This document shows positions 1,349-31,948 of a stretch of 43,859 nucleotides of DNA, in pieces; positions within the stretch are counted from its first letter, which is position 1, and the number at the start of each line of letters is the position of its first letter. Under the pieces are notes generated by a model. It saw only the letters and a list, made by a program, of their open reading frames with translations. It did not search any database and was not told where the DNA came from. Location of the stretch: the NCBI GenBank assembly GCA_964542215.1, contig CAZITR010000001.1, forward strand, positions 1 through 43,859, in the 5' to 3' direction. Source of the stretch: an uncultured Verrucomicrobiales bacterium. Its GTDB lineage: Bacteria; Verrucomicrobiota; Verrucomicrobiia; Verrucomicrobiales; DEV007. Position numbers and translations under genes: made by a program.

Positions 1349-1687
1349 ATGCGAACTTTATCTGCGCTACCCTGCATAATTGGTGTCGTTCGGGACTCGT
1401 GGAAGCAAGGCTATTTTTCCGTATATCCTATACGGAAGGATTGGGCAGATTTGCCGACTGAGGACAATCTGCTGCTGAAATGCCCTGAAGGGCTGCACAC
1501 TATCCACCTGAGCGAAAACTGGTCGGAAGCCCTCAAAGCGGGGCTTGTGGGCTCTTCGACCGAAATTTCTGAACTGTCCGGCCTGTCTTCGGGCAGAGTC
1601 CGGCAAATCATCCGCATGAGCAACATGCGGCCTGAAATCGTCTCGCACCTGAAAGGGCTGAACGGCAAAAAAGCCCTGAGAAAATAA
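1349..1687 (+). CDS. Small hypothetical protein with a C-terminal helix-turn-helix resembling sigma-70 region 4 or a ParB-type HTH.
   Basis: 112-aa ORF with an AGGA-like RBS just upstream of the ATG. The C-terminal segment STEISELSGLSSGRVRQIIRMSNM resembles the xxEIAxxLGxSxxRVRQI HTH signature. The N-terminal half is unrecognisable. Confidence 0.35.
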   Translation: MRTLSALPCIIGVVRDSWKQGYFSVYPIRKDWADLPTEDNLLLKCPEGLHTIHLSENWSEALKAGLVGSSTEISELSGLSSGRVRQIIRMSNMRPEIVSHLKGLNGKKALRK

Positions 1688-1836
1688 TCCCAAAGGCAGG
1701 TGCAGGCGATTTCAGCGGCCAAACTCGAAGATCAAGTGAAACTCTTCGAGGAAGTTTTTTCGGTCAAAATCGGCACTTAACTTGTTTCACTTGATTCATC
1801 GACCCTCGGTCGAAGCTCTTTCTCTTGAAAGCAAAA

Positions 1837-1871
1837 GGCTCCCCGCCTCGTGGCGGGGAGCCGATTTTTTT
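1837..1871. terminator. Bidirectional intrinsic terminator between the convergent HTH gene and ardA.
   Basis: Perfect 11-bp GC-rich stem GGCTCCCCGCC (1837-1847) / GGCGGGGAGCC (1852-1862) with loop TCGT. It is followed by T7 on the plus strand (1865-1871) and, on the minus strand, preceded by A-run/stop and followed by TTTTGC. Confidence 0.65.
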
Positions 1872-2409
1872 AGTGGTTCATGAAGATGTGAACCTCGTCG
1901 AAGCGGGTTTGCATGGTGACGATGTCGCCGCTCATGTCCATGTCCCGCCCCATGCGCTCGTAGTCGATGTAGAATTGCAAGTGCTCGGGAATCTCGCTGG
2001 TGCTCTCGGTGATTTCCTGTGCGTAGTCCGCTATGCTGGAATAGCTGCCCATGTAATTTTCAAGGGCGCGTGTGGCGTCTTCGATGTCGCCGCAATAGTG
2101 ATCCAGTGCCAAGGTGCCGACTTCGCCGTGCTCCTCCATAAACTCGGCCAGCTCGTGGACTCGCTCGATACTCTCCCATTCGGAAAGGCGGATGCCTCCG
2201 AAGCCTTCAAAGTCATGAATTGCCCATTCTTCCGCGTGTGGGATTGGTGAGGCTGCCAAGACGTTGCGGATTCGGTTCCATGTTTCGTCGATGTCGTTTT
2301 CAATGTCGATCCATTCGCCGTGGAGGATTCCGCTGTTGTAGGCAGCAAGGCAGGCAACATAGATGCGGGGTTGGTCTTGGGTGGTGGTGATTTCTGCTGT
2401 GAGTGTCAT
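1870..2409 (-). CDS. ardA: ArdA-family antirestriction protein (a DNA mimic that inhibits Type I R-M enzymes).
   Basis: 179 aa. RIYVACLAAYNSGILHGEWI, EEWAIHDFEGFG and LQFYIDYERMGRDMDMSGD correspond closely to the Tn916 ArdA blocks YIANLGKYNEGELVGAWF, EEYAIHDYE and LQNYIDYQAYGRDLDLSG as I recall them. The protein is very acidic. A GGAGA RBS lies 8 nt upstream. Confidence 0.9.
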   Translation of the reverse strand: MTLTAEITTTQDQPRIYVACLAAYNSGILHGEWIDIENDIDETWNRIRNVLAASPIPHAEEWAIHDFEGFGGIRLSEWESIERVHELAEFMEEHGEVGTLALDHYCGDIEDATRALENYMGSYSSIADYAQEITESTSEIPEHLQFYIDYERMGRDMDMSGDIVTMQTRFDEVHIFMNH

Positions 2410-2559
2410 TTTTCTAGTCTCCGTTGGTTACGGCCTTCTTCAGTGAAAGCCTGATTTCCCCTGCCAAGCGGCGAGCGAAGCTAGAGAGTGCCCGAAGCGG
2501 ACGGTGCAGCCGTCCAGTCAAGGTGGAGATTTTTTCGCGCAGCGCGGAAGCGAGGAGCT

Positions 2560-2640
2560 TGTGACGCGGCTGCACAAGTGAGCGCAAAAATACGACCTTT
2601 ACGGGTTCAAGCGGAGGGATGGATAATCCTGTGACGCGGC
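2560..2640. repeat. Two copies of an 11-nt direct repeat, TGTGACGCGGC, spaced 70 bp apart in the ardA upstream untranslated region.
   Basis: Exact copies at 2560-2570 and 2630-2640, each preceded by C[T/C]. No convincing ORF covers them. Confidence 0.6.
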
Positions 2641-2673
2641 AGCGGAAAACAGGCTTGGGGAACCCTGACCTTG

Positions 2674-2719
2674 GGGGCGCGTGCGCCCCGTGACTCAATC
2701 ATCAGGGCAATTGAGTGAC
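2674..2719. other. Two adjacent palindromic hairpin elements downstream of the HD-hydrolase gene and upstream of ardA.
   Basis: GGGGCGCGTGCGCCCC (2674-2689) is a GC palindrome. GTGACTCAAT (2690-2699) and ATTGAGTGAC (2710-2719) form a 9/10 inverted repeat around a 10-nt loop. Neither has a U-tract, so terminator function is uncertain. Confidence 0.5.
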
Positions 2720-2827
2720 AACGTGCCGGAGCTTGCGTAGGCGCGTCGAACTTGTTTGCCCCATCAGCGTGCGGCGGTTTCTGTGCCGAGACTAGCGCAG
2801 CGATGGAGGCTCTGTAACCGACGCGAA

Positions 2828-3253
2828 TCAGCCCATGGAAACCAAGCGTTTCCAGTGTTTGTGATACTTCGCAGTTCGCTTGAGGTCGTTCTCCGTGACG
2901 CGCTCAAGCTGCTTGAGGTTCATGTTGTCCTCAAGGTCTGCGATTTTGACTGCTCTGGCGACAGGGTTCGGAGCCAGACGGTCGATGAAATCCTTATAGG
3001 ATTCGCCGTCTCGGCGGGTCAGGCAATTCAGAGCTTCGATGAGTGCCTCGTCGAAGCCTTCTTTTCTCAAATCCTCAAATGTCCATTCAGTGTCCTCGAC
3101 AACGTCGTGGAGCACTGCCGCCATCTGCTGCAATTCGTCTTCGATCTGAAACATCAGTCGAAGGGGGTGCAGAATGTATGGGCTACCATCAAGCCGCGTC
3201 TGCTCTCTGTGGGCAGTCGATGCGATTTCAATGGCTCTGGCTAGGTTGGACAT
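2828..3253 (-). CDS. Stand-alone HD-domain protein of the RelA/SpoT hydrolase type: a small alarmone hydrolase (SAH) and putative (p)ppGpp/(p)ppApp pyrophosphohydrolase.
   Basis: 141 aa. AIEIASTAHREQTRLDGSPYILHPLRL (the RSH hydrolase N-terminal signature A..AH..Q.R..G.PY..HP), the HD dyad in AAVLHDVVEDT, and KIADLEDNMN (the KLADRLHN-like motif). No synthetase domain is present. Confidence 0.75.
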   Translation of the reverse strand: MSNLARAIEIASTAHREQTRLDGSPYILHPLRLMFQIEDELQQMAAVLHDVVEDTEWTFEDLRKEGFDEALIEALNCLTRRDGESYKDFIDRLAPNPVARAVKIADLEDNMNLKQLERVTENDLKRTAKYHKHWKRLVSMG

Positions 3254-3292
3254 TACTCAACCTTTCTTCCAGAAAACCACCCTCAAAGCGAC

Positions 3293-5419
3293 TCATTTCC
3301 GAGAAGCAACAATTCCATCGTAAAAGTAGCCTAAGATGAATTGATCGAATTCATCCAATGATTCGATGCTGCTTATTTTCTCATGCCCGACATCTGCAAA
3401 TTCTGAGATTACTTGGTGGATACTCTTTTCATCAGATTCCAAGTCGATCAGACTGGAATCCTGTATCTTTCTGGAGATGATCCTCGGAAGGCCATACTCT
3501 TCTAGCTGATAGACTAAAACAGGAAGGAAGGCGTGAGCGGCTTTGGCCGCAAAGGATGAAATATCAATCGTGCTGCCAAAAATTTCACGATTGATTGCAT
3601 TTATATCGTGCAGAAGCGTTGCAAGCTTGAAGGCGACATCCCGCTCAAGTTTGAAGAATTCATCAATTGCGATACCTCGACTCGCAGCTAACCTAATTGT
3701 TGCTGCAAGGCCTCGATTCCACCCCGAAGACATCACTTTTGCCGCTTCAACAATTTTAGTATATTGATGGCCTAAGTGTTTTAAGTGTTGAACCTTATAA
3801 AGAGCACTATCCCATCTGGAGGTGTCCGAGGAGTTGAGGTTTCGTAATTGGTTCCATGAATGTGGTTCTGCTTTGATTGAATTTACGATTTTCTTGGCTA
3901 AATCGTAGTCGGAACTCTGTAGAAATCCGCCCGAAAACAGGGTCTTCATCTGTTCGCTTGTCATCAATTCCTCAAGCTCTTCCTTATAGGCGATAATTAC
4001 CGCTATCTGCTCTTTCGTAAGATGACGCTCTTGTTCTTCCTCATCCATTGAGATCAAAAGACTCTCTGGGATATCGAGGGTGATTTGGGCGTCTTCATCC
4101 ACTGGAGGCTCTGCAAGGATATGCACATGGCCGACGAAGTATCTGAACATTCTCCCACCGCGTCCGGCGAGGTTCTTGTAATCGAATGACGTGAGCTTTG
4201 GCTGACCATTTTTATTATGCCAGACGACGACCCGTTCGGCCGCAGTATTTACACCTTCAATAATGGAGGAGGTGGAAATCAAACCTGCCAAACCTTCCTG
4301 TTCCTCAAAGAGCTTCACCTGTATCTGCGACAAAGACCGATGTAGACTGCCATTATGAATTCCATATTTTCGAGTAACCAAGTCTGCAAGGCTCCAGTCA
4401 GGTGAATAATTCTTACGAATCCATGCGCTAAATTGATCCAGTAAGCGGGTGGCGTGCGGGTCAGCACTTTCGCAAATCAGACTCATTAAGCGGTCAACCT
4501 CGGTGTATGTTCCTGCGTAAATGAGGGTCTTTGTATCCCCATTTTCCCGTCCTTCAACCAATAGCTTTTGGAGCACAACGGATTTCTGCTCAATTTTGGA
4601 ATCCTTTGAACCTTTTATATCAAGATACTCCTCGTAGGTCTTCAGGAACACTGTGGACATCTTGAATTCATGAAAGGTCATCCCTTGAGTAAAGACGCTT
4701 TCGGTAAGCGCAGTAATATTGGGTGCTAGGAAATACCGCTGCTTTGCTTTTTTGCTCAGTTCGAGAATTGCTTTCAGAAGAATAAGCGCACGCTCATCGG
4801 ACTTTCTCTGCGCGAATGCCTCGCTAGCTTTGTAAAACTCATCGACGATTAAGATGTCGATCTCATCTAGTTTGTCCAAATACCCGAATGCTCGCTCTTG
4901 GGGAAAGATGAGTATGTTTCTTTCTGCAAGAGGAACATCAGATGTCGTAATTACCTTATACAGCGATGAGAATTTTTTCGTTAGTCGTCTCCGTGCCTCG
5001 TCCATCAACGCAATTGTAGGCACGATAATGACGACGGTTCTTGGCTGCTTGATAGCTATAAACGAATCAATAACGAAGCTCTTTCCAAAACTGGTAGGAG
5101 CACTGATTGCCATATCCCGCCCTTCGAGCAACATGCGTAGAAGCTGAGATTGGTCTTTATGGAGCGTTTTGGGTTCTTCTTCTCCTGTATCCACCTTGAA
5201 AGCCTCATGGACGAGGCGATCCTCCCAGATTGAGGAGTCTGGGTCGATGTAGTGAAAGAACCCCAATCTTCGGGACAGATGATTCACGAGCTCATCGGGT
5301 TTCGAATTTGCCTTGTGAATTTTGTCCAATACGCGGATAAGCTCCTCACGAGCGTTATCCTCATCACCGGATTCGATGAGGCGATTTATCTGGGCGCATT
5401 CTTCGAAGAACATACTCAT
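3293..5419 (-). CDS. hamB: Superfamily-2 helicase, Hachiman HamB-like.
   Basis: 708 aa. Motif I SAPTSFGKS (K113), Ia IIVPTIALMDE, II LIVDEFYK (D193-E194), V ISTSSIIEGVN, VI NLAGRGGR. The C-terminal ~280 aa are helical with no motif I recognise. The start ATG shares one base (5419) with the stop codon of the upstream nuclease-like gene. Confidence 0.8.
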   Translation of the reverse strand: MSMFFEECAQINRLIESGDEDNAREELIRVLDKIHKANSKPDELVNHLSRRLGFFHYIDPDSSIWEDRLVHEAFKVDTGEEEPKTLHKDQSQLLRMLLEGRDMAISAPTSFGKSFVIDSFIAIKQPRTVVIIVPTIALMDEARRRLTKKFSSLYKVITTSDVPLAERNILIFPQERAFGYLDKLDEIDILIVDEFYKASEAFAQRKSDERALILLKAILELSKKAKQRYFLAPNITALTESVFTQGMTFHEFKMSTVFLKTYEEYLDIKGSKDSKIEQKSVVLQKLLVEGRENGDTKTLIYAGTYTEVDRLMSLICESADPHATRLLDQFSAWIRKNYSPDWSLADLVTRKYGIHNGSLHRSLSQIQVKLFEEQEGLAGLISTSSIIEGVNTAAERVVVWHNKNGQPKLTSFDYKNLAGRGGRMFRYFVGHVHILAEPPVDEDAQITLDIPESLLISMDEEEQERHLTKEQIAVIIAYKEELEELMTSEQMKTLFSGGFLQSSDYDLAKKIVNSIKAEPHSWNQLRNLNSSDTSRWDSALYKVQHLKHLGHQYTKIVEAAKVMSSGWNRGLAATIRLAASRGIAIDEFFKLERDVAFKLATLLHDINAINREIFGSTIDISSFAAKAAHAFLPVLVYQLEEYGLPRIISRKIQDSSLIDLESDEKSIHQVISEFADVGHEKISSIESLDEFDQFILGYFYDGIVASRK

Positions 5420-6348
5420 CAGTGCTCCTTCTCCTCTTTGACTCTAGAAATGTATGCGTCTAAGATTTCTTCTTTCTTCGGAACTGGAAACAGTATCAGC
5501 GTGAAAGAAATCTGGTCATACTTGGTGATGTTCTGGAGCTGCTCGATTTGCTTTTTGAAGAATGCATTCGCTCGCTCTTTGTGATGCTCAATCAGCTCAT
5601 CTCTAAGCGCATCATCGAAATCATTCTTTCCCGCGACGATGTCACACTCATGCAATATAAATATGGGAATATGAAGCTTAGGTTTTAAGCGGTCGGTGGT
5701 GGTATCTTCGTCGAGCAGATGCTTTAGCTCTTCGAGCATGTCAGGATCGCTGATGTATTTACCTAACTGACATACGCCAGTAATGATTGAGTTTTCTTTC
5801 CTGATTTTGTTTGGGTCTAAAGAATTGCCGACTGACTTAATAATTTCAGCAAGGCGCGCATTCTCGATTGAGTTGTAAAATTTGGCTTCGCCATACCAAA
5901 TTTGAAAATCACCGTCCGCCACCGTGATGTGGACGCTATCAGCACCCTTCGCGTTATCTTTGACATTCTGCTTATAGAAAATCTTAGGAACTGCGGGAAT
6001 AGCGCCAAAGTGCTTCCTCATGATTCCATATAAGAAAATCTCTGCCAACTCACTCCCTGCGCCCTTTGTTTCTGCCGTCTCATCTTTCGTAAGACGCATC
6101 CTAGATGCCGCTCGACCTAAAGCTGTGGCATGGTCACCTGCAAGAGCCTCTCGTTCTTCCTCCGAGAGAGCCGTTTCTGCCACATTATCCCAAACAAATC
6201 TGTGGAATGCTTTCGCTCGCCATATTCCTCCCTCATAGTCGTTACAAAAGCTAAGCAAGTTCTTGCGGTCAATAGGTGCCAGAGAAGAATCCTCGCAGAA
6301 ATTTGCGAATGCTTCGTCTATGACGATGTTAAACTTGGTGGAGGACAT
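5419..6348 (-). CDS. hamA: DUF1837-like protein with a PD-(D/E)xK-type motif arrangement, Hachiman HamA-like effector.
   Basis: I place the start at ATG 6348 (MSSTKFNIVIDE), 22 nt after the hsdR stop, giving 309 aa; the track ORF start at 6426 would overlap hsdR. Motifs are GAGSELAEIFLYG (E100), KGADSVHI (D137) and WYGEAKFYNS (E154-x-K156). It is paired with an SF2 helicase, as in Hachiman. Confidence 0.7.
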   Translation of the reverse strand: MSSTKFNIVIDEAFANFCEDSSLAPIDRKNLLSFCNDYEGGIWRAKAFHRFVWDNVAETALSEEEREALAGDHATALGRAASRMRLTKDETAETKGAGSELAEIFLYGIMRKHFGAIPAVPKIFYKQNVKDNAKGADSVHITVADGDFQIWYGEAKFYNSIENARLAEIIKSVGNSLDPNKIRKENSIITGVCQLGKYISDPDMLEELKHLLDEDTTTDRLKPKLHIPIFILHECDIVAGKNDFDDALRDELIEHHKERANAFFKKQIEQLQNITKYDQISFTLILFPVPKKEEILDAYISRVKEEKEH

Positions 6349-6370
6349 TTGATTTCTGGTTTTGGGATAC

Positions 6371-9300
6371 CTATATCTGCCCACCGACGCCCTTAAACTT
6401 CTCCACGAATGTAGAGATTTTCTCAAACACGGTTTGCTTCTTCGTTTTGTATTGCGGGTTGAGCGGACTCATTTTGGGGAGCGCGGCATTGAGTGCAGTG
6501 CCATTTTCAGTCGCGTATTCCCGCTTCAAGGATGCCTTGATGTAGCGCCTCGCCTCTTCTTCATTCAGCCCTTCGGACTGGATCAGTTCAACAGCCTCAC
6601 GCTTTTGTTCCTTCTGAGCGAACTTGAAGAACGTATCAATCACAGTGGCTTTGTCGCCGATGTCGTCGAGGTTCGTCTGATTGATAAAATCGACAATCAA
6701 GCTTTCCTTCGCACGACTCCCAATGCTGGCTCGGATTACACGGCGCACTTCATCGATGAGGTCTTCCTTGTTCTTAGTCTTCTTGTTGTGCTCAAATATC
6801 AGCTCCAGAATGTAGTCGAGGTTGATCTCTTGGGATTTCAACAAGTCCACCTCAAAGACGACATCATCCCAATCCACGGTTGATGGCTCTTTTTGGTCGC
6901 CTTCCTTCTGGCGTCTTAGCCAGTCACGGGTGTCATTGTAGGTTGAGCGGTAGTCTTGAACCAGTCTATCAGATGGCACGTCGATCTTTCGCATCGCCTC
7001 AATGTCGTCATCGTTCAGGTAATGCTTCGCCTTAAATTCTTCGACGGCTTCTTCATCTTCGAGGTCAATGTCCTGCAAGGCATTCAGTCCTGTAAATTCA
7101 TCATAGTTACGCAGAATGTTCTCCACGCGGAGGTATTCTCCGAAGAGCTTTACGAACGCCTTCTTGTCCTGTTCTTTCTCAATCTCGCTCGGCTCCGGAA
7201 AACGTTCCTGCAACTCAGTAACCACATCCACATAACCACGGCACGCCTTTCCGGTGGCAATGTCCGTAAAGCCTTCCATGTATTCTTTGTAGCTCTTCTC
7301 CAGAACCACGTTCTTGGTATTCGCATTCCCGAAGAGCGTAATTGCATTGATCGTGCTCTGTTCCAAATCGCGGAAGGTCACGATGTTGCCGAAGGTCTTG
7401 GTCGCGTCATAGATGCGATTGGTGCGCGAATACGCCTGTAGTAGGCCATGGTAACGCAGGTTCTTGTCTACAAAGAGTGTGTTAAGCGACGGGGCGTCGA
7501 AGCCTGTCAGGAACATGCCTACGACGATAAGTAAGTCCACTTCTTGCTTTTTAACCCGTTGTGCTAGGTCGCGGTAATAGTTCTGGAAGCCCTTACTATC
7601 GACGCCAAAGTTCGTTTTGAAAGTAGCATTGTAGTCACCAATCGCCGCGCTGAGAAATTCCTTTGCGCTGCTGTTCATGGCCGATACTTCGAAACTCTCA
7701 TCAGGAATATCGCCGACAGCGTCCTGCTCTTCATTGGCCGCAAAGGAGAAAATGGTCGCCACGTTGAGGCGTTTTTTGTCCTCCACTCCAGCTTGTAGCT
7801 CACGAAATGCCTCATAGTAGGCTTTCGCTGCATCCACACTGCTGACTGCAAACATGGCATTGAAGCCCTTTGCTCCCATGTGAGCACGGTGCGTCTTATG
7901 TGAGAAATTCTTTAGGACATAGCCGGAAATCTCATGAATTCGATCAGGGTGAAGTAGTGCCTGTTTGTTTTCCGCAGCCGTGAGCTTTTTCTCATCTTGC
8001 TCGGTTTCGATAGCTTGGAACCTAGGGCGCACATCATTGTAATCCACTTTGAACTTGAGCACTTTTTCGTCTCGTATGGCATCCGTTATGACATAGGAAT
8101 GCAACTCACGCCCAAAGACACTGCCCGTAGTCTCGGCACCGGAAGCGTTCTCTGGGAAGATCGGCGTGCCCGTAAATCCGAATTGGTAATACCGATTAAA
8201 CTTCTTTTTGAGGTTTTTCTGCGCTTCCCCGAATTGGCTGCGGTGGCACTCGTCAAAAATAAAGACGACTTGCTTATTGTAGATAGGCAGGTCGCCTTCT
8301 CCCCGCATCAGGTTGTTGAGCTTCTGGATGGTGGTGACGATGATCTTGTTGTCGTCTTTCTCGATATTACGCTTCAGCCCAGCCGTGCTATCAGAGCCAT
8401 TCACGCTGTCGGGCGAGAAGCGTTGATATTCCTTCATCGTCTGGTAATCGAGGTCTTTGCGATCCACCACGAAGAAAACCTTGTCGATAAACTCCAGTTC
8501 GGTGGCCAAACGTGCCGCTTTGAAGCTAGTGAGCGTCTTGCCTGAACCTGTGGTGTGCCAGATGAAGCCACCACTCTCGGCCTTGCTCCAGTTCTTCGCT
8601 TGGAACGCGCTCTTGATCTTCCACAAAATGCGTTCTGTTGCCGCGATCTGGTAGGGGCGCATCACTAGCAGCGTGGCGCTCACATCAAAAACCGAATATT
8701 TCAGAAGCACTTCCAGCAGGGTGTGCTTCTGAAAAAAGGTCGCAGTAAAGTCCTTGAGGTCTTTAATTAGGGTATTGTCCGACTGCGCCCAGTTCATAGT
8801 AAAGTCGAAGCTGTTTTTGTTTCGCTTTACCGTATTCGCGAAGTAACGGCTGTCTGTGCCGTTCGAAATGACAAAAAGCTGTAGATACTTGAAGAGAGAG
8901 TTCTCTGAATTGAAGCTCTCCTTGCTATAGCGGTGCACTTGATTAAAAGCTTCGCGGATCGCAACGCCGCGCTTCTTCAGCTCCACCTGCACCATGGGCA
9001 AGCCATTCACGAGAATGGTTACGTCATAGCGATTGGCATGGCTGCCTGACTGCTCAAACTGCTTGATGACCTGAAGCTTGTTGTTGAGCACATTTTTCTT
9101 ATCGAGCAGGTAAATGTTCTCAATATGCCCATCATCGAAGACAAAATCTTTGATGTAGTTCTCATGCAACTTACGAGCCTTGTCTGTGCTGTTTTCACTG
9201 GCAGGATCGAGGTATTGCTCAACGAAGCGCTTCCACTCATCCTCTGTGAATACCATGTCGTTCAGTTCCTGAAGCTGCGCGCGCACATTAGCCAGCATAG

Positions 9301-9475
9301 CTTCAGGCGTGCGGATTTCCTGCGCATATTCGTAGCCTTGATTGACCAAATCCCCAATAAACTCACGCTCAAGTGCGTCTTCACTCTGGTAATCCTCGCC
9401 GACTACGCTGTCCCGCTCGTAACGATCTAGGACGATGAAGTTCTTGGATTCTGCGATGGTTTTGTAGCTAGTCAT
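6371..9475 (-). CDS. hsdR: Type I restriction enzyme R subunit (Type IC-like).
   Basis: 1034 aa. N-terminal PD-(D/E)xK-like nuclease segment [20 protein letters not shown]2 motor motifs [13 protein letters not shown] and [12 protein letters not shown], and later [14 protein letters not shown]. The start overlaps the stop of the upstream gene (ATGA at 9472-9475). Confidence 0.95.
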
Positions 9476-10740
9476 GTTGCAGTTACTGTCGGTTGGGCAG
9501 GCTGTGCGCCGTCTCGTCTGAAATGAAAGCGGTTCTCCTGATTGATACTATCCGCAAGGAATCGGAGGACGCGCTTGTCTTCCTCATCCAAATCTCGGAT
9601 TTCATCCCCCGCATGCTTGGAATGACTTCCCCAGTTTACGATGCGCTTGGCGTAGGCATCCGTTGTGCCGTCACTTGTTCTGGGCAAAAGCTCTTCCCAG
9701 TTTTTGTAGCCGAGGAAGGTTGAGGTCTTCTCCAAGATGTTCCGCAAGAAATTGAAATGATATTTGTGAATTTGCCCCGCCTCTATCGCTCTATTCAACT
9801 CAGCATTTAGAAAGAGGTGATAAGAGAATGGCGAGTCTGTGGGCTGGTCTTCCAAATCTGCAGTGCCATCCTCGAATTTAACCAGCTTGTGTTTACTGAA
9901 CTGCTTGGCCTTCCATCCAAGCTTCTTATCGTCTCGGCTAAATTCGTTGCACAGAACGTTGTAAAAAAGTGGGTTGTGCGTTGTTACAATGAACTTCAGC
10001 CCCTGAAGGTCATAAAAATGACTACGCTTGATGAGCGTCGCGATGTCCACGGCCAGTCGGATCAAGTGATTGTCATCCAAAGAGCTGACGGGGTCATCAA
10101 TGAAAATATACTTTAGGTCGTTAAACTGGTCGGTGTCGCGTTCATCCACTTCAGTAATATTCAGCGTTTCGACCACCTGATCGATCAAGGTGTAAAACAC
10201 GCTCCAGATGAAATTGCTCTCTTCCCCCTTGGAAAGCTTGATGTTTTCTTCCTGCTGCTGATTTCCTCGCTCAAACGAGAATGTGACCTCGGAGTTTTTA
10301 GGCACTTTTCTGAGAACATTCCCATCCTTGCCCTTGATTTCATATGCTTCGTTGAAGTGCGGCGTGAGCTTGTCGCTAGTATAATATTGGAAGTTACTGA
10401 TTATGTTTTGATCCTGCCCCTGATCGTTCAAAACCCAGCTCGTAAAACCATTCGGCTGTATGATGAGTTTGGGGGCAATATCTTCGGTTAAGTCGTTATC
10501 CCAATAAAACAGGTCTTCTGTGAACGCATTGTAGTATAGGATTTTTGGGAGAACGGTATCCGGTTCTTCATCTTCTGCTTCTTCTATATTCACAGGGGCT
10601 TTGGGCGCGACACGTTCTTTGAATTTCCGAGATAGGCGTGTTTTCCCGCTCCCATTGAAGGCGTATATGAGCTGCACCTTCTTCTCACTTGCCTCAAGTT
10701 GCTGGGCGATGGTTTCTAGTGTCTGGCTCATTTCAAGCAA
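9472..10740 (-). CDS. prrC: PrrC-like protein: an ABC-type ATPase N-domain fused to a putative anticodon-nuclease C-domain, embedded between hsdS and hsdR.
   Basis: 422 aa. Walker [10 protein letters not shown] (30-34), ABC signature-like LSKGEES (169-175), Walker [13 protein letters not shown] (211-222), H-loop VTTHN (252-256). The C-terminal region has R333-x3-E337 (FLRNILEK) and H373 (NWGSHSKH), resembling the Arg/Glu/His triad I recall for E. coli PrrC. The position hsdM-hsdS-X-hsdR is identical to the classical prr locus. Confidence 0.75.
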
Positions 10741-11890
10741 CTACCTCCCTTGGCTCTTCGGGTGTCGGAAAGCTCAACAACAAAGCACGGTAATACTCAT
10801 ATTGCTTCTGCCTCAGCTCGATCTCCCGAGGGAGGCCGTCGCTAATCGAGCTAGTGAGTGTATCAAATTTATCTAAAGTGCCGACAATGAGTTCCTTTCT
10901 CTCAGGCGATGGATTAGGAATTCTGATGCTGTTTAAATTCTTTTTGTTTAGTTTGGGTTGCGCAGCTCCTGATATGTATGGAGTTAGATCAATACCATTC
11001 AGATAATATTCTACGTAACGCCGCTCATGGTATGTTTCGAACCTAAGGACATGGGCATGATTGTTTACCCAACTTTTACCGCTGACGCTAAAAGCAATGG
11101 GAGTTTTTCTTGCTGTCAGGTTAGCACCATCTTCCGAAACTAACAGGAGATCTTCATCAAAGATATAGTCTTTAACGTAATCAACTACGCCTGATGCGCC
11201 GTAATATGGAATATCACCTGTTTCTCTTAGCCCTCCTTTAACAGGCTTTCGCTGAGAGTCCAAGTTTTCCGCAAGTTCGCCCAACGCTTTCCATTCAACG
11301 TCTCCCTCGTCAAAGGTCAGGAGCTTATTACGATAGTAGTTGTATTGCTTTCGTCGCGCTTTAAGCTCGGTCGTAAGCTCGGTCGTAAGCTCGGTGAAAG
11401 TGTCTAAGATGCGGACGATTTCCGCTTGGATGGCCAGCGACTTTTTAGGGTTATCTGGGCATGGGATGGGGATTTGAAGATTTACTATTTCACTTTTTTT
11501 CAAAGCAGGAATTCCTGCTCCATGCTGACAGTTTGTGAGCTTTTCTTGATTGAGCTTTAGGAAATGAAAAACATAGCGGTTATCGACAATCTCGAGCCTT
11601 GGAAGAACCACATAGCAGTGTGCATTTGCGTAGAATTTTGAAGTCACAAAATTGACGAAACCTGCTGAAGCTCCACCTTGACTGATTATCGTAGTGTTCT
11701 CGGAATAATTATAGCTGTCAGTGAAGCCAGAGTATGAAATACCACCGTTGTATGCTGGGAATAACCCCTCCTTAGACAACAACTCTTTATTGAGTTGTTT
11801 GCCTTTCTCTAGATCAACAGCGTCTCCGAGAGGAGACCACGTCACCTTCTCTCCATTGAGCAGCCTGTCTATAAAGATGCTGTTACTCAT
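10733..11890 (-). CDS. hsdS: Type I restriction enzyme specificity subunit.
   Basis: 385 aa. Two target-recognition halves, each followed by a conserved helical segment (…[30 protein letters not shown]… and …[20 protein letters not shown]…). It overlaps hsdM by 4 nt and the prrC-like gene by 8 nt. Confidence 0.9.
11362..11396 (-). repeat. 12-bp tandem repeat (about 2.9 copies) encoding TEL(T/K) x3 in the central spacer helix of HsdS.
   Basis: The plus strand reads taagctcggtcg taagctcggtcg taagctcggtg. The minus-strand translation is [16 protein letters not shown]. Confidence 0.9.
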
Positions 11891-13449
11891 GCCTCGCTCC
11901 CTTCGATTTCAGCAACTATGGCATCGATGTCCTTGCGAAGCCCGTCGATCTTGCTGACGGTTGCCTCAATTTCTTGATTTAGTTCCGTGATATTAACGAC
12001 TTCACGTGTATCCTTGGCTTCCACGTATGTGCTGACCGAGAGGTTGTAGTCGTTTTCTTCCGCAATGGCCTCCATGCGAACAGATTTAGCGACATGCTCC
12101 ACATCCTCCTTGCGGTCGAAGAGCTTCATAATCTCTTCGACATGGTCATCCGTCATCACGTTATTATTGGTCTCTTTCTTGAAAAAGCCCTCGCCGGAGG
12201 CATCGATGAACTGAACCTTGGTGTCAGTCTTGTGCTTGGAGAGCACGAGAATATTCACGGCAATCGTGGTGCCATAGAAGAGATTTGGCGCAAGAGAGAT
12301 GACGGTCTCCACGAAGTTGTTATCCACCAAGTATTGGCGAATTTTTTGCTCTGCGCCACCACGATAGAAGATGCCAGGGAAGCAAACGATGGCAGCTCTG
12401 CCCTTGCTCGAAAGATAGTTGAGCGTATGCAGCACGAAGGCGAAGTCCGCCTTGGACTTGGGAGCCAACACACTAGCCGGAGCAAAGCGGTCGTCATTAA
12501 TGAGTGTCGGATCATCACTGCCGATCCATTTCACCGAGTAAGGTGGATTGGAAACAATCGCATCGAAGGGCTTATCATCGCGAAAGTGCGGATCAGTCAG
12601 CGTATTGCCTAGCTGCATGTTGAACTTATCGTAGTTCACATCGTGCAGAAACATGTTCATCCGCGCGAGGTTGTAAGTCGTGTGGTTGACCTCCTGCCCA
12701 AAGAAGCCTTCTTCAATGAGGTGGTCATCCATGTGCTTTTTCGCCTGTAGGAGAAGTGAACCAGAACCTGCGGCTGGATCGTAAATCTTGTTTACGCTCG
12801 CTTGACCATGGATGGCAAGCTGAGCGATGAGCTTGGAAACATGCTGAGGCGTGAAGAATTCGCCTCCAGATTTTCCGGCATTAGCGGCATATTTGCCGAT
12901 CAGAAACTCATAGGCATCGCCGAAAAGATCGATTTCACTGTCCTCAAAGTGACCAAAGTCGAGTTCATTGACCCCCTTCAAGACTGACGCTAGACGGCTG
13001 TTCTTGTCCTTAACCGTTTTTCCCAAGCGATTGCTGGTGGTGTCGAAGTCATCAAACAATCCCTTGATGTCCTCCTCTGAGTCATAGCCCATGGCTGAGC
13101 TCTCAATGGCGGTGAAAATAGCCTTGAGGTCAGTGTTCAGGTTTTCGTTATCGTTCGCATTCTTGACTACATTGACAAAGAGCTGACTGGGGTAGATGAA
13201 GTAACCCTTGGTCTTGATCGCGTCTTCTTTAATCGCCGCAAGGTCTTCATTGTCATCGGCTATCTCCGCGTAGCGGAAGCTGTCGTCACCGCCTTCGATG
13301 TAGCGAGCAAAGTTCTCGCTAATGAAGCGGTAGAAAAGTGCCCCCAGCACATATTGCTTGAAGTCCCATCCGTCCACTGTTCCTCGCACATCGTTGGCAA
13401 TCTGCCAGATGCGACGTTTGAGTTCCTCGTTTTGTTGTATGCTGGTCAT
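11887..13449 (-). CDS. hsdM: Type I restriction enzyme methyltransferase subunit (N6-adenine).
   Basis: 520 aa. SAM-binding [11 protein letters not shown] and catalytic [11 protein letters not shown] (NPPY). The N-terminal HsdM helical domain begins [23 protein letters not shown]. Confidence 0.95.
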
Positions 13450-13452
13450 ATT

Positions 13453-13629
13453 CTATTTTTCGGAAGATTTCGGTTTCTCCTGATTTTCCGGCTTGGTCTG
13501 TAGCTGGGATTCACGGATTTCAAGGAGGCGAAGTCCCTCACGCACCACTTCGCTCGCTGAGCGATAGCGCCCCTTTTCAACGAGTTCGTTGACAAATTCT
13601 TCCAGCTTATCGGTCAGGGATACATTCAT
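13453..13629 (-). CDS. ParD-family ribbon-helix-helix protein (58 aa). No cognate toxin is present. It is the first gene of the R-M array and a possible transcriptional controller.
   Basis: Not in the ORF track (below 60 aa); this is my own translation: MNVSLTDKLEEFVNELVEKGRYRSASEVVREGLRLLEIRESQLQTKPENQEKPKSSEK. The block L..EFV..L...G.Y.SASEV.REGLRLL matches the ParD/COG3609 RHH N-domain as I recall it. The stop TAG at 13453-13455 lies 3 nt before the hsdM ATG. Confidence 0.7.
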   Translation of the reverse strand: MNVSLTDKLEEFVNELVEKGRYRSASEVVREGLRLLEIRESQLQTKPENQEKPKSSEK

Positions 13630-13637
13630 TCAACCGC

Positions 13638-13665
13638 ATGCTAGAAAACGCCTGAAAAATGTCAA
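13638..13665 (-). promoter_or_regulatory. Candidate sigma-70-type promoter for the RHH-hsdMS-prrC-hsdR(-hamAB) array.
   Basis: The minus strand reads TTGACA (13665-13660), a 16-nt spacer, then TAGCAT (13643-13638). Only 8 nt separate the -10 element from the ATG, so the transcript would be leaderless or nearly so. This is a consensus match only, and the host promoter rules are unknown. Confidence 0.3.
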
Positions 13666-13707
13666 AGACTGTTATCATCGAAATTCGAGGGTCTAACTAG
13701 AAATTCA

Positions 13708-15010
13708 TTGGATGATGACCACCACGCGGTAGCGGCTGCCCAGTCGCTCGCTCAATGGGAGCGGCAACTGACGAAGCAACGCGTCGCCGACAAGATTGCT
13801 GAGCGAAGCAAGCGCGGTTATTGGAATGGCGGGAATCCGCCATTCGGATACGATTACAGCAAGGATGAGAAGCTTCTGCTCCCGAATAAGCAAGAAGCTC
13901 AAATCGTCGCCAATGTCTTTGAACTCGTCGCGCAATACGGCTCTCCGACTGAGATTGCCAAACAACTCAACAAGGACGGCATCAAGACCAAGTCATTCTT
14001 GGCCACCAAGAAAGACGGCAAAACGAAGATGATGGGCGGCAAGCGTTGGGTTGGCCAAAACGTCACTCGGCTCGTTCGCAATGCCATTTACAAGGGTGTC
14101 ATCGTTCACGGAGACAATGAGTATGAGGGACGGCACAAGGCTCTGGTCGATGCCAAGCTCTGGGAGAAAGCGAATAAAAAGCTGGTTGAAAATCAGCCTG
14201 CTCAATCTCCGACGCGGAGGAGCAATCGCCATGAAATGCTCCTGAAGGGCATTCTCAGGTGCGACCATTGCAATCGCTTTCTTGTGCCAAAGCCTGCTGG
14301 CAAGAAAGACAAGGACGGCAACCCATACCTTTATTACACCTGCGGCGACCTGAACAAACACGGCAAGAAAACCGATTGTGTTCTGAGAAATATTCCTGCC
14401 CGTGCGTTTGAAGATTTCATCATCAAGTTACTGGCTGAGCTTGGAAAGCATCCCGACGTGGTCAAAGCAACCGCTGAAGCTGCGAAGCGGGAGCATAAGG
14501 AAGCTGTGAAGCCATTTGAGGCCAAGCTCAGAAAGGTCGCGAAAGAGCTGGATGAAGCATCAAAAGAAGTCGCCTCGCTCATCGACATGGCCAAACGGCC
14601 AGAGATGAAGAATCTGTCGGGTGAATTCATGGCGGAGGCCGATGCGCTCGGGAAGCGAAAGAGTGACTTGCAGGTGGAGCGCCAGAAGCTCCAGATGGAA
14701 ATCGACTATCGGCGTTCGCTGGTGGTCGATGAAACCATCCTCTACAAGAACCTGACCGAGTTTGCTGCTCTCTTTGAAAAGCTTACTTTCGAAGAAAGGG
14801 CGGAGCTGGTGAGCCTGCTTTTCAAAGAGATTCGGGTGTCGCGTTTCGACCCCGAAAAGGACGAACATTCCTGCGATCCAGACGTATTCGTAACCAAAAT
14901 GCGAACTTCATGGTATCGCGTGGATTTGAGAATGTTCTCAAAGTCCTTCAACATGAAGGACTTGCTGGGAAAGTGCGAGCTGGAACCGGAAGTTCGCAAT
15001 AAGAATAAAA
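13708..15010 (+). pseudogene. Large serine recombinase lacking the N-terminal catalytic (resolvase) domain. The recombinase domain, zinc ribbon and coiled-coil are retained.
   Basis: The ORF opens with an alternative TTG, and the first recognisable residues (AAAQSLAQWERQLTKQRVADKIAERSKRGYWNGGNPPFGYDY) correspond to the end of helix E and the start of the recombinase domain. Also present are NAIYKGVIVH, zinc ribbon CDHCNRFL...YYTCGD...C, and a long coiled-coil (KLRKVAKELDEASKEV...). No Ser-nucleophile region exists upstream: an in-frame stop lies at 13642-13644. The 3' end is uncertain because the frame runs on without a stop to 15435. Confidence 0.8.
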
Positions 15011-15030
15011 GTGGCGGAGAGGGTGGGATT
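15010..15030. repeat. Direct repeat of the tRNA-Ser 3' end (an att-type island junction). Its partner copy is at 15194-15214.
   Basis: AGTGGCGGAGAGGGTGGGATT is identical at 15010-15030 and 15194-15214. The second copy includes the CCA end, discriminator base, 3' acceptor strand and part of the T-arm of the tRNA. Confidence 0.85.
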
Positions 15031-15195
15031 GATTTTGTTCCGCAGTCGCGGAACTCCATCTGTGCCGATTGCTCGCTGTGCTCGTATTATATCAGTCCCG
15101 CAGACAGCGGGACGAAGGGCGCTCGAACTGCGTTCTCATCCCACCCTGTATATTCAAAAGCCCTGCCACGCTTCGCTTGTGGCTTGGATTTTGAG

Positions 15196-15283
15196 TGGCG
15201 GAGAGGGTGGGATTCGAACCCACGATGCCTTGCGGCATGCCGGTTTTCAAGACCGGTGCATTCGACCACTCTGCCACCTCTCC
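15196..15283 (-). tRNA. tRNA-Ser (anticodon UGA), type II with a long variable arm and an encoded CCA.
   Basis: The reverse complement GGAGAGGTGGCAGAGTGGTCGAATGCACCGGTCTTGAAAACCGGCATGCCGCAAGGCATCGTGGGTTCGAATCCCACCCTCTCCGCCA folds by hand. Acceptor GGAGAGG/CCTCTCC; anticodon stem CCGGT/ACCGG with loop CTTGAAA; variable stem ATGCC/GGCAT; T-arm GTGGG-TTCGAAT-CCCAC. Confidence 0.95.
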
Positions 15284-15331
15284 GGAAACGTGCCCCTAAC
15301 TTCCCCCGGCTCGGGCAATGCGCAACAAAAA

Positions 15332-18300
15332 CTATTTTTTCGACTCGCTTTCCGCCGCCGCCGGCTCGCCCTCGGGCTGGATCAATACGGGGAGGGCCTT
15401 GTCACCGCCGAGATATTCCTTGGCCAATGCATTGATCTCATCCAGTTGGATCGCCTCGTAGTCCGACACAAAACTACGCGCCCAGTCCAGCCGTTGCGGG
15501 TACTCCTGGCTGCTCTGCATCACGCTATTCATCCAGTAGCGGTTGGTTCTCCGGTACTCCTCGATTTGGTTGATCTGCGGTTTTTTCGCCCTCTCCAATT
15601 CATCCTCCGTGACCGTACCGGCAGCCAAGCCCTCGCCGATTTCCCTCACCACACCCGTCAACATTTGGGCCTGGTCCGGTTTGGATGTTACCGCGGCAAA
15701 AAGGTATCCGTAGCCTTCGAACACATCGCTCGGCAGATTGTGGGCAAAGGGGCTGTAGGCATCCCCCAACTCCTCGCGCACTTTCACCCGCAGGCGGTCG
15801 TCCATCACCAGCGCCAGCACGCTCAGGCGGCGGGTCCGTTTGATGTCCCAGATATCCTCAGTCGGCCAGTACACCAGGGACATGGCTTTCGGAATCGCTG
15901 TCTCCACACCGAAGGTCTGCTCCTTGACATCCCGGGGGAAGGCGACCTGGCGCTGCTTCTCGTAAGAGGGCTTTTTGTCCTCGCGTTTTTCCAGGTTGCC
16001 AAAGGTGGCCAACACTTCGGCGATCATTTTCTCCATCTCAAAATCGCCGACGACCGTGAGCTCCAAATAGGAACTGGCAAGCGGCTCCTGCAACCACTCC
16101 CGGACATCCTTCGCCGTCAGTTTCTCCATCTCCTCCTGTGGGGGGAACCCAAAGCGGGGATCCCCGCTGTGCAAGAACTGACTCACTGCACTTTGCATCA
16201 CCCCTTGGGGAGTCCGCTCGATCTGTCGGTAGATTTGATCCATCCCCCGCCGAAACAAGGCAGCCGCTTCCGGACGGTATCCCGGATCGGTGAAATAAGC
16301 CCGCATCAACAGCAACTGATCGTGCAGGTCATCCGCGTTGGTCTGGCCGCTCATGGCAAAGGCGTCGTCCTCCACACCGAAGCGCACCGAGGCCGTCACC
16401 CCTGCGTAGATGCGTTTGATTTCGTCAATGCTGTGCTCGCCCAAACCCCCGTCGGCAAAAGTGTTGCCGGCAAAAAACGCCAGCCCCGATTTGTCCTTGG
16501 GTTCCACCAGGCGGCCGCCACCAAAACGGGCCTTCACATGGACTGTTTCATCCTCAAAATCAGTCACTTTCAGGTTCACCCTCACACCATTTTCCAACAC
16601 CAACTGGGTCACCCCGAGATCCTCCACCACTTCTTTCTTGGCAACCTTGCCGGGTGCCGGGAGTTCGCTGTAGGCAAAGGCCTGTTCCTCCTGTAAAACC
16701 GGTGGCTCCACTGCAACTGCCTGGCTTGCTTGGTAGGCAGCCAAAATCGTGTCCTCGGCATTCTCAAGCTCCAGATTGCCGGTGATCAACACCAGTTTTT
16801 CCCCGCCCCCATCCCAAGCCTCCTTCAGTAGTGCCTGGCATTCCCCGGCGGTGATTTTTTCCAACTCGGCCTCCACCCGCCGCAAGTCATCCGCCGGACT
16901 GGTGAATACTTTCCTGCTACCAAGGTGGCTGGCGATCGCACTCGACAAATCCCTGGATTTCCGGGTTCCCATCGACTTGGCCTCTTGGCTATACGCTTCC
17001 AAAACATTCGCCTTGGCCTCCTTCAACTCCGAAGCGGTGAATCCAAACTCCAAAGCCTGCCTCAGCTCTTTGTCTGCGGTCTCCAGCGCCTCCCGCCAGT
17101 TCTCCGGACGGCAAGTCACCTCGAGGGAGGCATAGCGGACAAACCCGAGATTGTAGAGGTCATAAATATGGGAGGCACCACTCAAAATCGCCGCCTCTTC
17201 CTTCTTAGCCAGAATTTCCAGTCGCCGGGAGATAATCCGGTTGGCCAGGGCCAGACGCAAGTCCTTGGCACGTCGCTGCAGCGAGTCGCCCCCCTCGTCC
17301 ATCGGTTTCATGGTGTCGATAGAGACCGACACTTCGCCCGCCTCTGGCTCGGGATGGAAATGGGCAGCCAGCCCCCGCGAAGTCAACTTGCCGAGGTCTG
17401 GCTCCGCCGCCTTCCCGCCGGGTTTCAAATCCGAAAACACTTCTTTGATAGAGGTCTCGATCGCCTCCTCATCCACGTCACCCACCACGATCAGAGCCAT
17501 CCGGTCGGGCGTGTACCATTTCTGGTAGAACTCCACAAAGCGTTCCCGCGGGGCATCCTCGATGACCTCTTCCTTCCCGATCGGCAAACGGCTGCTAATC
17601 AACGCGTCCGGCAGGATAAATTTCAATTGCTCCACAAACGTCCGCCAACCCACGGAGTCCCGCGTCCGTTTTTCGCTCAGGATCACGCCACGCTCTTTCT
17701 CGATCGCCTGCTCTTTCAACAACATGCCGTCGGCGTAGTCACGCAACAATTGGAATCCCTGTGACAACAGCTCGGGATCCGAGTCGGGCATCTCCAGTTT
17801 GTAAACCGTCTCCTTGAACCCGGTGTGGGCGTTGGTGTCCGCCCCGAAAGCCATCCCCAGCCGTTGGAAATACTCCACCATCTCACCATCGGGAAAATGT
17901 TTTGACCCGTTGAAAGCCATGTGCTCCAGAAAATGCGCCAACCCCTGCTGGTTGTCCTCCTCCATCAGCGAACCCGCGTCGACAAACAAACGCATGCTGA
18001 CCCGCTTGGGTGGCTCGCTGTTCTTCATGATGGCGTAGCGCATCCCGTTCTCCAACAGTCCCCACTTCACCGCCGGGTCGGGCTTGATGTCGCTACCCTC
18101 CTGTGCCAGGGGGATCGGACTGGTTTCTTGTGAAACCGCCTGTGCCGCCTCCGGCTGCCCAGCAGAGCCTTCCTTGGTCATGTCGGGGGCGCTTGCCTTC
18201 TCGTTGCTGCTCTCCTTGGACAAAGGTTCTTTTTGGGGAGATTCCCGCGGTGCTTCCCGGCAAGCCTGCGCAGAAAACAACAAGGTGAGGGCCAAAGTCA

Positions 18301-18343
18301 ACCGGGGTACTGATTTCAAGATTGGGTTCTGCATATTTTTCAT
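15332..18343 (-). CDS. Secreted M16-family (pitrilysin/insulinase-like) zinc metalloprotease with a duplicated M16 module.
   Basis: 1003 aa. N-terminal signal-like segment, inverted zinc motif HFLEHMAFNGS (HxxEH), and a second inactive-type M16 half. Confidence 0.9.
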   Translation of the reverse strand: MKNMQNPILKSVPRLTLALTLLFSAQACREAPRESPQKEPLSKESSNEKASAPDMTKEGSAGQPEAAQAVSQETSPIPLAQEGSDIKPDPAVKWGLLENGMRYAIMKNSEPPKRVSMRLFVDAGSLMEEDNQQGLAHFLEHMAFNGSKHFPDGEMVEYFQRLGMAFGADTNAHTGFKETVYKLEMPDSDPELLSQGFQLLRDYADGMLLKEQAIEKERGVILSEKRTRDSVGWRTFVEQLKFILPDALISSRLPIGKEEVIEDAPRERFVEFYQKWYTPDRMALIVVGDVDEEAIETSIKEVFSDLKPGGKAAEPDLGKLTSRGLAAHFHPEPEAGEVSVSIDTMKPMDEGGDSLQRRAKDLRLALANRIISRRLEILAKKEEAAILSGASHIYDLYNLGFVRYASLEVTCRPENWREALETADKELRQALEFGFTASELKEAKANVLEAYSQEAKSMGTRKSRDLSSAIASHLGSRKVFTSPADDLRRVEAELEKITAGECQALLKEAWDGGGEKLVLITGNLELENAEDTILAAYQASQAVAVEPPVLQEEQAFAYSELPAPGKVAKKEVVEDLGVTQLVLENGVRVNLKVTDFEDETVHVKARFGGGRLVEPKDKSGLAFFAGNTFADGGLGEHSIDEIKRIYAGVTASVRFGVEDDAFAMSGQTNADDLHDQLLLMRAYFTDPGYRPEAAALFRRGMDQIYRQIERTPQGVMQSAVSQFLHSGDPRFGFPPQEEMEKLTAKDVREWLQEPLASSYLELTVVGDFEMEKMIAEVLATFGNLEKREDKKPSYEKQRQVAFPRDVKEQTFGVETAIPKAMSLVYWPTEDIWDIKRTRRLSVLALVMDDRLRVKVREELGDAYSPFAHNLPSDVFEGYGYLFAAVTSKPDQAQMLTGVVREIGEGLAAGTVTEDELERAKKPQINQIEEYRRTNRYWMNSVMQSSQEYPQRLDWARSFVSDYEAIQLDEINALAKEYLGGDKALPVLIQPEGEPAAAESESKK

Positions 18344-18422
18344 AAATCTGGTTTTTCAAAAATTCACCGGTGACAAGTTCAGGCAACCGATCAACTGCCC
18401 TGCTCGTGTCCGGAAGCATTCT

Positions 18423-19199
18423 CTACGCCCCCTGGTTGCGGCGATTATACTCTACGCAATCCTCGTACTTCACAAGTGATCCTCCGAAAATGTCGAGCGC
18501 GCTGCCCACCGTCACATCCACCCTGCCGCGGCTCAGACGGTCCACCGTTTCCAGATCCCGAAAACTCCGGACTCCCCCCGCATAGGTCACCGGACAGCCC
18601 CCCCAAGCCCCCAACATTTCCACCAAATCTTCATCGATGCCCTCGCAGCGCCCCTCCACATCCGCGGCGTGGACCAAAAACTCCGCACAACTCGCGGCGA
18701 GTTCCGCCAATGTCTCCACCGTCACCCACAGGTCGGTCTTGGTCTGCCAACGATCCATCGCCACCACCCAGGCATCTGCTTCCCGGCGGCAACTGAGATC
18801 CAGCACCAGCCGTTCTCGGCCCACCTCGTCCACCAGGCGGTCCAGGGAATTTTTCTGAAAATGGCCCTGCCGATCAAAAAGGCACGAGGTCGCGATCACA
18901 TGGCTCGCCCCCGCCTCCAACCAGCTGCCCGCGTTTTCCGCCGAGATCCCCCCGCCGAGCTGCAAGCCCCCCGGAAAGGTCGACAGCGCCTCCCGGGCCG
19001 CCTGTTCATTGCCCGGCCCCAGCATGATCACATGCCCCCCGTGCAAAGAATCGCGGCGATAGAGCCCGGCAAAATAGGCCGCCGACTGCTCGCTGACAAA
19101 ATTCGTCCGCAGGGACTCCCCCGCAGCGTCCAGAGTGCCCCCGACGATTTGTTTCACCTTGCCCTCGTGCAGATCAATACATGGCCGGAATTTTGTCAT
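18423..19199 (-). CDS. hisA: ProFAR isomerase (HisA), eukaryote His6-like type.
   Basis: From the internal ATG at 19199: MTKFRPCIDLHEGKVKQIVGGTL..., later LQLGGGI and VTYAGGV. The track ORF start at 19250 adds an implausible leader. Confidence 0.85.
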   Translation of the reverse strand: MTKFRPCIDLHEGKVKQIVGGTLDAAGESLRTNFVSEQSAAYFAGLYRRDSLHGGHVIMLGPGNEQAAREALSTFPGGLQLGGGISAENAGSWLEAGASHVIATSCLFDRQGHFQKNSLDRLVDEVGRERLVLDLSCRREADAWVVAMDRWQTKTDLWVTVETLAELAASCAEFLVHAADVEGRCEGIDEDLVEMLGAWGGCPVTYAGGVRSFRDLETVDRLSRGRVDVTVGSALDIFGGSLVKYEDCVEYNRRNQGA

Positions 19200-31940: not shown

Positions 31941-31948
31941 CCTTTCCA

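Follow-up and report, generated by a model that had tools for sequence, protein, structure and literature searches.

The DNA analysed here is a stretch of 43,859 nt from an uncultured Verrucomicrobiales bacterium (contig CAZITR010000001.1), referred to as the window throughout. Its minus strand carries a Type I restriction-modification (R-M) operon with an additional gene between hsdS and hsdR, and the product of this gene is very likely a genuine PrrC anticodon nuclease, encoded in a Type IC operon that appears, from profile matches, residue mapping and gene order, to be orthologous to the prr locus (EcoprrI) of E. coli. An earlier reading of the same DNA, made from the letters alone (the sequence-only reading), had already described a 422-aa open reading frame (ORF) inside the R-M operon at this place, and we find that frame present and intact.

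The protein belongs to the PrrC family by its profile matches. The PADLOC profile for PrrC (PDLC02360) scores 452.5 bits with E 2.6e-136, much too strong a match to be due to chance, with residues 3-409 aligned to positions 17-350 of the 372 in the profile. The runner-up PADLOC family is PDC-S06, and the other AAA_13 defence systems considered (PDC-S06, AriA) were rejected at no more than 60 bits vs 452 for PrrC. The expected match to Pfam AAA_13 (PF13166) was also obtained, above the gathering cutoff (E 4e-19, 69 bits vs 36). The ABC-type NTPase motifs that the sequence-only reading had located in the N-terminal part all lie at the residues it named, and so do R333-x3-E337 and H373 in the C-terminal part; the nucleotide coordinates of the motifs, checked by translation, are listed in Table 1. 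A single Cys is present in the whole protein, and no coiled-coil insert interrupts it.

The residues of the window protein were mapped against E. coli PrrC at the level of single alignment columns. The reference (EcoPrrC) was the 396-aa 'anticodon nuclease' from the prr locus of E. coli strain B1. The published Lys-anticodon-recognising peptide (LARP), KYGDSNKSFSY, occupies residues 284-294 of this protein, which is therefore authentic EcoPrrC. BLASTP aligns the two proteins with 49% identity (E 3e-127). The columns that R333, E337 and H373 occupy in the multiple alignment are those of Arg320, Glu324 and His356, and all three are invariant in 37 homologues. The sequence-only reading had named these three E. 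coli residues as a similar pattern, and the correspondence to authentic EcoPrrC is exact. All three have been implicated in EcoPrrC catalysis (Blanga-Kanfi et al. 2006, PMC1484252). Furthermore, we mapped the list of essential residues of Meineke et al. 2010 (PMC3025547), given here in EcoPrrC numbering. Lys46, Thr47, Lys168, Lys171, Asp215, Asp216, Lys245, Thr250 and His251 are kept, and the PrrC box keeps Glu88, Trp93, Asp94 and Asn95. Asn257, Glu262, Phe292, Tyr294, His295 and His315 are likewise kept, the two histidines as H308 and H328 of the window protein, and the C-terminal domain keeps Arg320, Asn321, Glu324, Arg349, Asn352 and His356. Anantharaman et al. 2013 (PMC3710099) ascribed an R-x4-6-H HEPN motif to both PrrC and RloC, and the window protein has it in the R-x6-H form.

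The window protein and EcoPrrC both join an ABC-type NTPase to an anticodon nuclease of the HEPN type, they share PrrC box, triad and R-x6-H motif, and their genes have the same order of neighbours and the same 1-nt distance from hsdS. At 49% identity, the two chains also differ: EcoPrrC has a 16-residue N-terminal insert that the window protein lacks, whereas short additional segments follow the Walker B region and precede the C-domain in the window protein, which also ends in an extra disordered tail of ~12 residues. The host is also different, Verrucomicrobiota in place of E. coli, and the Stp trigger of EcoPrrC is specific to T4-like phages.

An AlphaFold2 model was built on the 37 homologues, with a mean predicted local distance difference test score (pLDDT) of 77. 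Its N-domain matches the ABC heads of Rad50/SMC proteins (Foldseek, E ~1e-5) and also those of the defence ABC ATPases PtuA and the retron ATPase. The final third of the protein is predicted to be all-helical, as expected for HEPN; the Foldseek search of the model returned ABC heads only and no structural match for the HEPN fold of the C-domain.

The start codon and the two gene junctions of prrC were also inspected. In the six-frame ORF list, the 422-aa frame runs over 9472..10740 on the minus strand and opens with an in-frame TTG at 10740. The equivalent of M4 is the first residue in all homologues of the alignment (MSQTL/MSKTL), and a start at this codon, the ATG at 10731, gives a junction identical to that of E. 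coli. On these two grounds the gene probably starts at ATG 10731 and encodes 419 aa, and the TTG start was dropped. At the border of hsdS and prrC the sequence is GCT TGA A ATG, so that a single nucleotide separates the stop codon of hsdS from the ATG of prrC, and the same spacing is found in the prr locus of E. coli B1, where 6900 is the last position of hsdS and 6902 the first of prrC. The 8-nt overlap with hsdS given by the sequence-only reading holds for the TTG start alone and is replaced by this 1-nt gap at the likelier ATG, while its 4-nt overlap with hsdR is real and consists of the ATGA within the junction ACATGAC.

The R-M partner is of Type IC. TAEL repeats define this type, and the TELT repeats of the window HsdS occupy their position, at which the E. 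coli protein reads TALT-AELT-AEL. The HsdR subunit contains the EcoR124_C domain (PF12008, E 4e-74), a typical Type IC feature. HsdS is 37% identical to EcoprrI HsdS; the two can be aligned over their conserved central and C-terminal regions, and their target-recognition domains are different. With the catalytic motifs DECH of HsdR and NPPY of HsdM both intact, the partner is apparently a functional orthologue of EcoprrI. The order hsdM-hsdS-prrC-hsdR, compared with the prr locus in the sequence-only reading, is indeed the E. coli order, on one strand and with a close EcoprrI (Type IC) homologue.

Several observations weigh against the assignment to a working PrrC. EcoPrrC His297 and Lys299, essential in E. 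coli, are replaced by Phe and Asn in the window protein; neither position is conserved in the toxic PrrC of S. mutans either (PMC3025547). PrrC homologues of Neisseria and Xanthomonas with an intact triad were non-toxic in yeast (PMC3025547), so conserved residues are no guarantee of activity. The loop equivalent to the LARP peptide is 2 residues shorter than that of EcoPrrC. The C-domain part of the AlphaFold2 model has moderate confidence, and a sequence search of the PDB gave marginal Rad50 matches alone (E ~0.4) and found no solved PrrC or RloC. In NCBIfam no family matched at E <= 0.1; the look-up of anticodon-nuclease models suggested by the sequence-only reading is thus uninformative or negative, and the name 'anticodon nuclease' on a 98%-identical homologue must stem from other evidence. 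Finally, nuclease activity, latency and silencing by the R-M enzyme, activation and its trigger, and the tRNA cut are all ascribed to the window protein by homology.

On the E. coli model, PrrC would be produced along with the R-M subunits, and its binding to the Type I enzyme would keep it latent. The Type IC enzyme would then be disabled by an anti-restriction factor of a phage, and this, combined with the sensing of nucleotides by the ABC N-domain, would bring about the release. In E. coli the factor is T4 Stp, and the N-domain assists by hydrolysing GTP and binding dTTP. The C-terminal HEPN-type RNase (R333/E337/R366/H373), set free in this way, would cut the anticodon loop of its tRNA and leave 2',3'-cyclic phosphate and 5'-OH ends, upon which translation would stop and the infection would be aborted. 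The same logic, an abortive effector freed by the attack of an anti-restriction protein on the R-M enzyme or its decoy, is known from PARIS (AriA/AriB), Ronin (RonA with HsdMS) and EcoR22I, but their effectors are unrelated to PrrC, and the PADLOC match of the window protein to AriA (E 0.002) covers the generic ATPase core alone.

There are two proposals for the tRNA that such an enzyme would cut. The LARP motif of EcoPrrC specifies tRNA-Lys and characterises only those PrrCs that have this target. tRNA-Lys is plausible by analogy with E. coli, and a competent PrrC whose altered recognition loop directs it to another tRNA, or to several tRNAs, is a tentative but serious second option. The shortened loop reads QPTDS--PFSY against KYGDSNKSFSY, with K284, Y285 and G286 replaced, and Kaufmann's group has argued that the substrate specificity of PrrC homologues differs where the LARP region differs. 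Against this, the residues genetically tied to tRNA-Lys recognition (Asp287, Ser288, Phe292 and Tyr294 of EcoPrrC) are all retained, and the short form DSPFSYH is the majority form, invariant among the 37 diverse homologues, which makes EcoPrrC and not the window protein the outlier. An altered target refines the assignment to PrrC and does not replace it.

It is improbable that the gene is a silenced or non-functional PrrC relic travelling as a passenger on a mobile island. Its position on a horizontally acquired low-GC block beside a truncated recombinase would suit a relic, as would the lack of toxicity of some PrrC homologues in heterologous tests (PMC3025547), but the frame is intact, every essential residue is present apart from the two replacements named above, and the translational coupling to hsdS and hsdR is kept. 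A diverged copy of the locus argues in the same direction. The 12.4-kb block 1327-13754, hsdM through ardA, is 98.1% nucleotide-identical to positions 6979-19404 of JAAVJM010645443.1, a contig of a metagenome-assembled genome (MAG). Between the two copies of prrC, on contigs diverged by a synonymous divergence (dS) of 0.02-0.09, there is no amino-acid change over the first 405 codons, and the 8 amino-acid differences all fall in the last 14 residues, in the disordered tail with pLDDT < 50. By gene, dS is 0.004-0.02 for hsdM, hsdS and the body of prrC, and 0.08-0.24 for hsdR through ardA. This switch in dS, together with differences confined to the tail, suggests that the two copies were joined by recombination close to the 3' end of prrC, and it gives no sign of gene decay.

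RloC is a distant homologue of PrrC that shares the ABC ATPase, the HEPN anticodon nuclease, the triad and the Pfam family AAA_13, but it is ~800 aa in length, about twice as long, and its Walker A and Walker B motifs are separated by a Rad50-like coiled coil that bears a CxxC zinc hook. We give very little credence to the view that the window gene encodes an RloC-type or other AAA_13/ABC-HEPN ATPase that works independently of R-M (for example by sensing DNA breaks) and merely lies beside hsd genes: JGI labels several homologues 'wobble nucleotide-excising tRNase', the COG label of RloC, and Pfam detects just the shared AAA_13 family, yet the protein has 419 aa, no coiled-coil insert and one Cys, hence no CxxC zinc hook, it carries the PrrC-specific box, PADLOC separates it clearly from other AAA_13 systems (452 bits vs <=60), and its coupling to R-M is strict (hsdR downstream in 80/80 loci, see below), whereas RloC is rarely R-M linked according to the literature. 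The PrrC/RloC-family module of the sequence-only reading accordingly stands as PrrC proper, and its RloC half was rejected for the length, the missing coiled coil and zinc hook and the R-M linkage.

With the gene taken as prrC, its distribution shows how ordinary the locus is. A protein search of a large collection gave at least 8000 matches. Among the matches listed, the top one is a MAG protein of 98% identity named 'anticodon nuclease [Opitutae bacterium]', and many are enterobacterial proteins of 396-400 aa with ~62% identity, several of them also named 'anticodon nuclease'. A genome scan with one genome per species, queried with an alignment of homologues, confirmed relatives in at least 591 species, and the proteins of the window were compared by tblastn with the best 80 of these at least 591 loci. 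The 80 loci come from Bacteroidota, Alpha-, Beta-, Gamma- and Deltaproteobacteria, Firmicutes, Chloroflexi, Spirochaetes and Calditrichaeota, and also from Verrucomicrobiota (Methylacidiphilum, Terrimicrobiaceae) and Planctomycetota (Fuerstiella); a host of the PVC (Planctomycetes-Verrucomicrobia-Chlamydiae) group is no new range for PrrC. In every one of the 80, hsdR lies directly downstream of prrC on the same strand. An hsdS gene lies upstream in 78, the other two stopping at a contig edge, and hsdM was found in 69, the remainder being cut by contig ends. The sequence-only reading had presented prrC as inserted between hsdS and hsdR; this placement is in no way special, as prrC universally has it. 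The survey agrees with the literature, according to which a homologue of EcoprrI accompanies prrC in all cases, and the locus illustrates the strong conservation of the hsdS-prrC-hsdR arrangement.

Across the same 80 loci, HsdM and HsdR are 72-89% identical to those of the window, barring two matches cut short at contig ends, and PrrC is 53-73% identical. The conserved HsdM and HsdR beside a more variable PrrC fit a picture in which the cassette as a whole is rampantly transferred between lineages and the guard evolves faster. PrrCs of the majority type (for example those of Salmonella, Enterobacter, Klebsiella, Photorhabdus and Flavobacteriales, annotated as 'anticodon nuclease' or 'AAA family ATPase') have 60-75% full-length identity to the window protein, the same loop and the same operon position, with no substantive difference in the protein. 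The window prrC is an ordinary and already known member of its family, detected by PADLOC and with a 98% relative named in NCBI. It provides one more confirmed example of the PrrC/Type IC 'second strike', in a marine-type Verrucomicrobiota genome, and its importance is limited; the gene itself opens no new question, and a PrrC this diverged from the prototype (49%) may be useful for comparative substrate biochemistry or structural work. One relative, at 6894-9999 of locus L006 (80%-identical PrrC, 506-kb contig), has an hsdM truncated beside insertion sequence elements (Y1_Tnp, rve), a RhuM-family gene between hsdM and hsdS, and PhdYeFM/YoeB-ParE toxin-antitoxin pairs after hsdR. An association of RhuM with PrrC loci has been noted earlier (Anantharaman et al. 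2013, PMC3710099).

Table 1 Features of the prrC locus and its surroundings in the window.
Feature	Position	Strand	Details
prrC, anticodon nuclease	9472..10731	-	419 aa from ATG at 10731 (probable start); PADLOC, Pfam, homologue N-termini
Walker A / P-loop GSGKT, residues 30-34	10639..10653	-	K33, T34 = EcoPrrC Lys46, Thr47
PrrC box, residues 69-83	10492..10536	-	Sequence matches authentic EcoPrrC residues 82-96
ABC signature / C-loop LSKGEES, residues 169-175	10216..10236	-	K168, K171 = EcoPrrC Lys168, Lys171
Walker B + D-loop, residues 212-222	10075..10107	-	215, D216, D222 = same-numbered EcoPrrC residues
H-loop / switch TTHN, residues 253-256	9973..9984	-	T254, H255 = EcoPrrC Thr250, His251
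LARP equivalent QPTDS--PFSY	9820..9846	-	Aligned to EcoPrrC KYGDSNKSFSY
RNILE	9730..9744	-	R333, N334, E337 = EcoPrrC Arg320, Asn321, Glu324 (catalytic)
HEPN R-x6-H motif RIVNWGSH	9622..9645	-	R366, N369, H373 = EcoPrrC Arg349, Asn352, His356
hsdM, Type IC methylase	11887..13449	-	HsdM_N + N6_Mtase, NPPY; 80% identical to E. coli prr-locus HsdM
hsdS, specificity subunit	10733..11890	-	385 aa; two Methylase_S domains; central TELT repeat region
hsdR	6371..9475	-	1034 aa; HSDR_N, SWI2_SNF2/ResIII, T1R_D3-like, EcoR124_C; DECH; 76% identical to EcoprrI HsdR
Sigma-70-like promoter match TTGACA-16-TAGCAT	13638..13665	-	~190 nt upstream of hsdM; weak
HamA (Hachiman)	5419..6348	-	ATG at M27 of ORF 5419..6426; PADLOC 2e-122; 22 nt past hsdR stop
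HamB (Hachiman)	3293..5419	-	PADLOC 3e-207; overlaps HamA end
HD-domain protein	2828-3253	-	141 aa; between hamB and ardA; weak Pfam HD_4/HD matches, RelA/SpoT-hydrolase-like HD motif
ArdA anti-restriction gene	1870-2409	-	Pfam ArdA E 7e-44; end of same-strand block
Hairpin, 11-bp, GC-rich, with T-run	1837-1862		After ardA
Large serine recombinase remnant	within 13708-15283, ending near 15010	+	Recombinase + Zn_ribbon_recom domains only; N-terminal resolvase catalytic domain missing
Exact 21-nt direct repeat AGTGGCGGAGAGGGTGGGATT	15010-15030 and 15194-15214		Copies 184 nt apart
tRNA-Ser(UGA)	15196-15283	-	3' end = second copy of 21-nt repeat

Downstream of hsdR, the cassette continues on the same strand with a complete Hachiman system (3293-6348), followed by the HD-domain protein, which is conserved in JAAVJM010645443.1, and ardA. 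The terminator scan found no convincing terminator between hsdR and hamA, and the six genes hsdM through hamB may form one operon, as judged only by their spacing. The match upstream of hsdM is a possible promoter of this operon, although the promoter-like sites of the region as a whole do not exceed the shuffled expectation in the promoter and terminator scan. Hachiman was found within 6 kb of prrC in 0 of the 80 other PrrC loci, and the continuation by Hachiman, HD protein and ArdA in none of them. This neighbourhood is mildly interesting, and more so than prrC itself.

ArdA inhibits Type I enzymes by mimicking DNA, and it is curious to find it encoded in cis with PrrC, which guards such an enzyme. 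We regard as unlikely, though not negligible, the joint proposal that ArdA in cis reflects trigger discrimination by PrrC or exclusion of elements and that, separately, the short DSPFSYH loop directs PrrC to a tRNA other than tRNA-Lys. If it were true, PrrC would either stay silent under inhibition of the ArdA type, which would amount to trigger discrimination, or be tripped in the resident cassette by ArdA from an incoming copy of the element, which would be a form of element exclusion.

The cassette lies in a block of distinct composition, with 45-50% GC over ~3000-15000 and 58-61% GC in the window flanks. In JAAVJM010645443.1, the cassette is preceded by NikA-like and relaxase genes and by PP2C phosphatase, Ser/Thr protein kinase and ParD genes; the NikA-like and relaxase neighbours indicate that it rides on a mobilisable element. 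The upstream neighbours in the window itself are the recombinase remnant and a tRNA gene. The mechanically called ORF of the recombinase continues to 15435, across the tRNA gene, and the 21-nt repeat at the 3' end of tRNA-Ser looks like the att-site scar of a tRNA-targeted integration. No third copy of this repeat occurs within the window, and the Rfam search of the window matched nothing beyond the tRNA.

The flanks also point to the host group. The asparagine-tRNA ligase encoded at 40833-42218 is closest to MAG proteins of Verrucomicrobiota/Verrucomicrobiales, at 88% and then 74-76% identity, and this, with the 98%-identical PrrC from an Opitutae MAG, upholds the PVC-group host suggested by the sequence-only reading. 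The flank at 26404-34248 encodes two sulfatases, an FGE-sulfatase-domain protein and a Na+/H+ exchanger; a flank this rich in sulfatases is characteristic of marine Verrucomicrobiota or Planctomycetota that degrade polysaccharides, and it has no connection with prrC.

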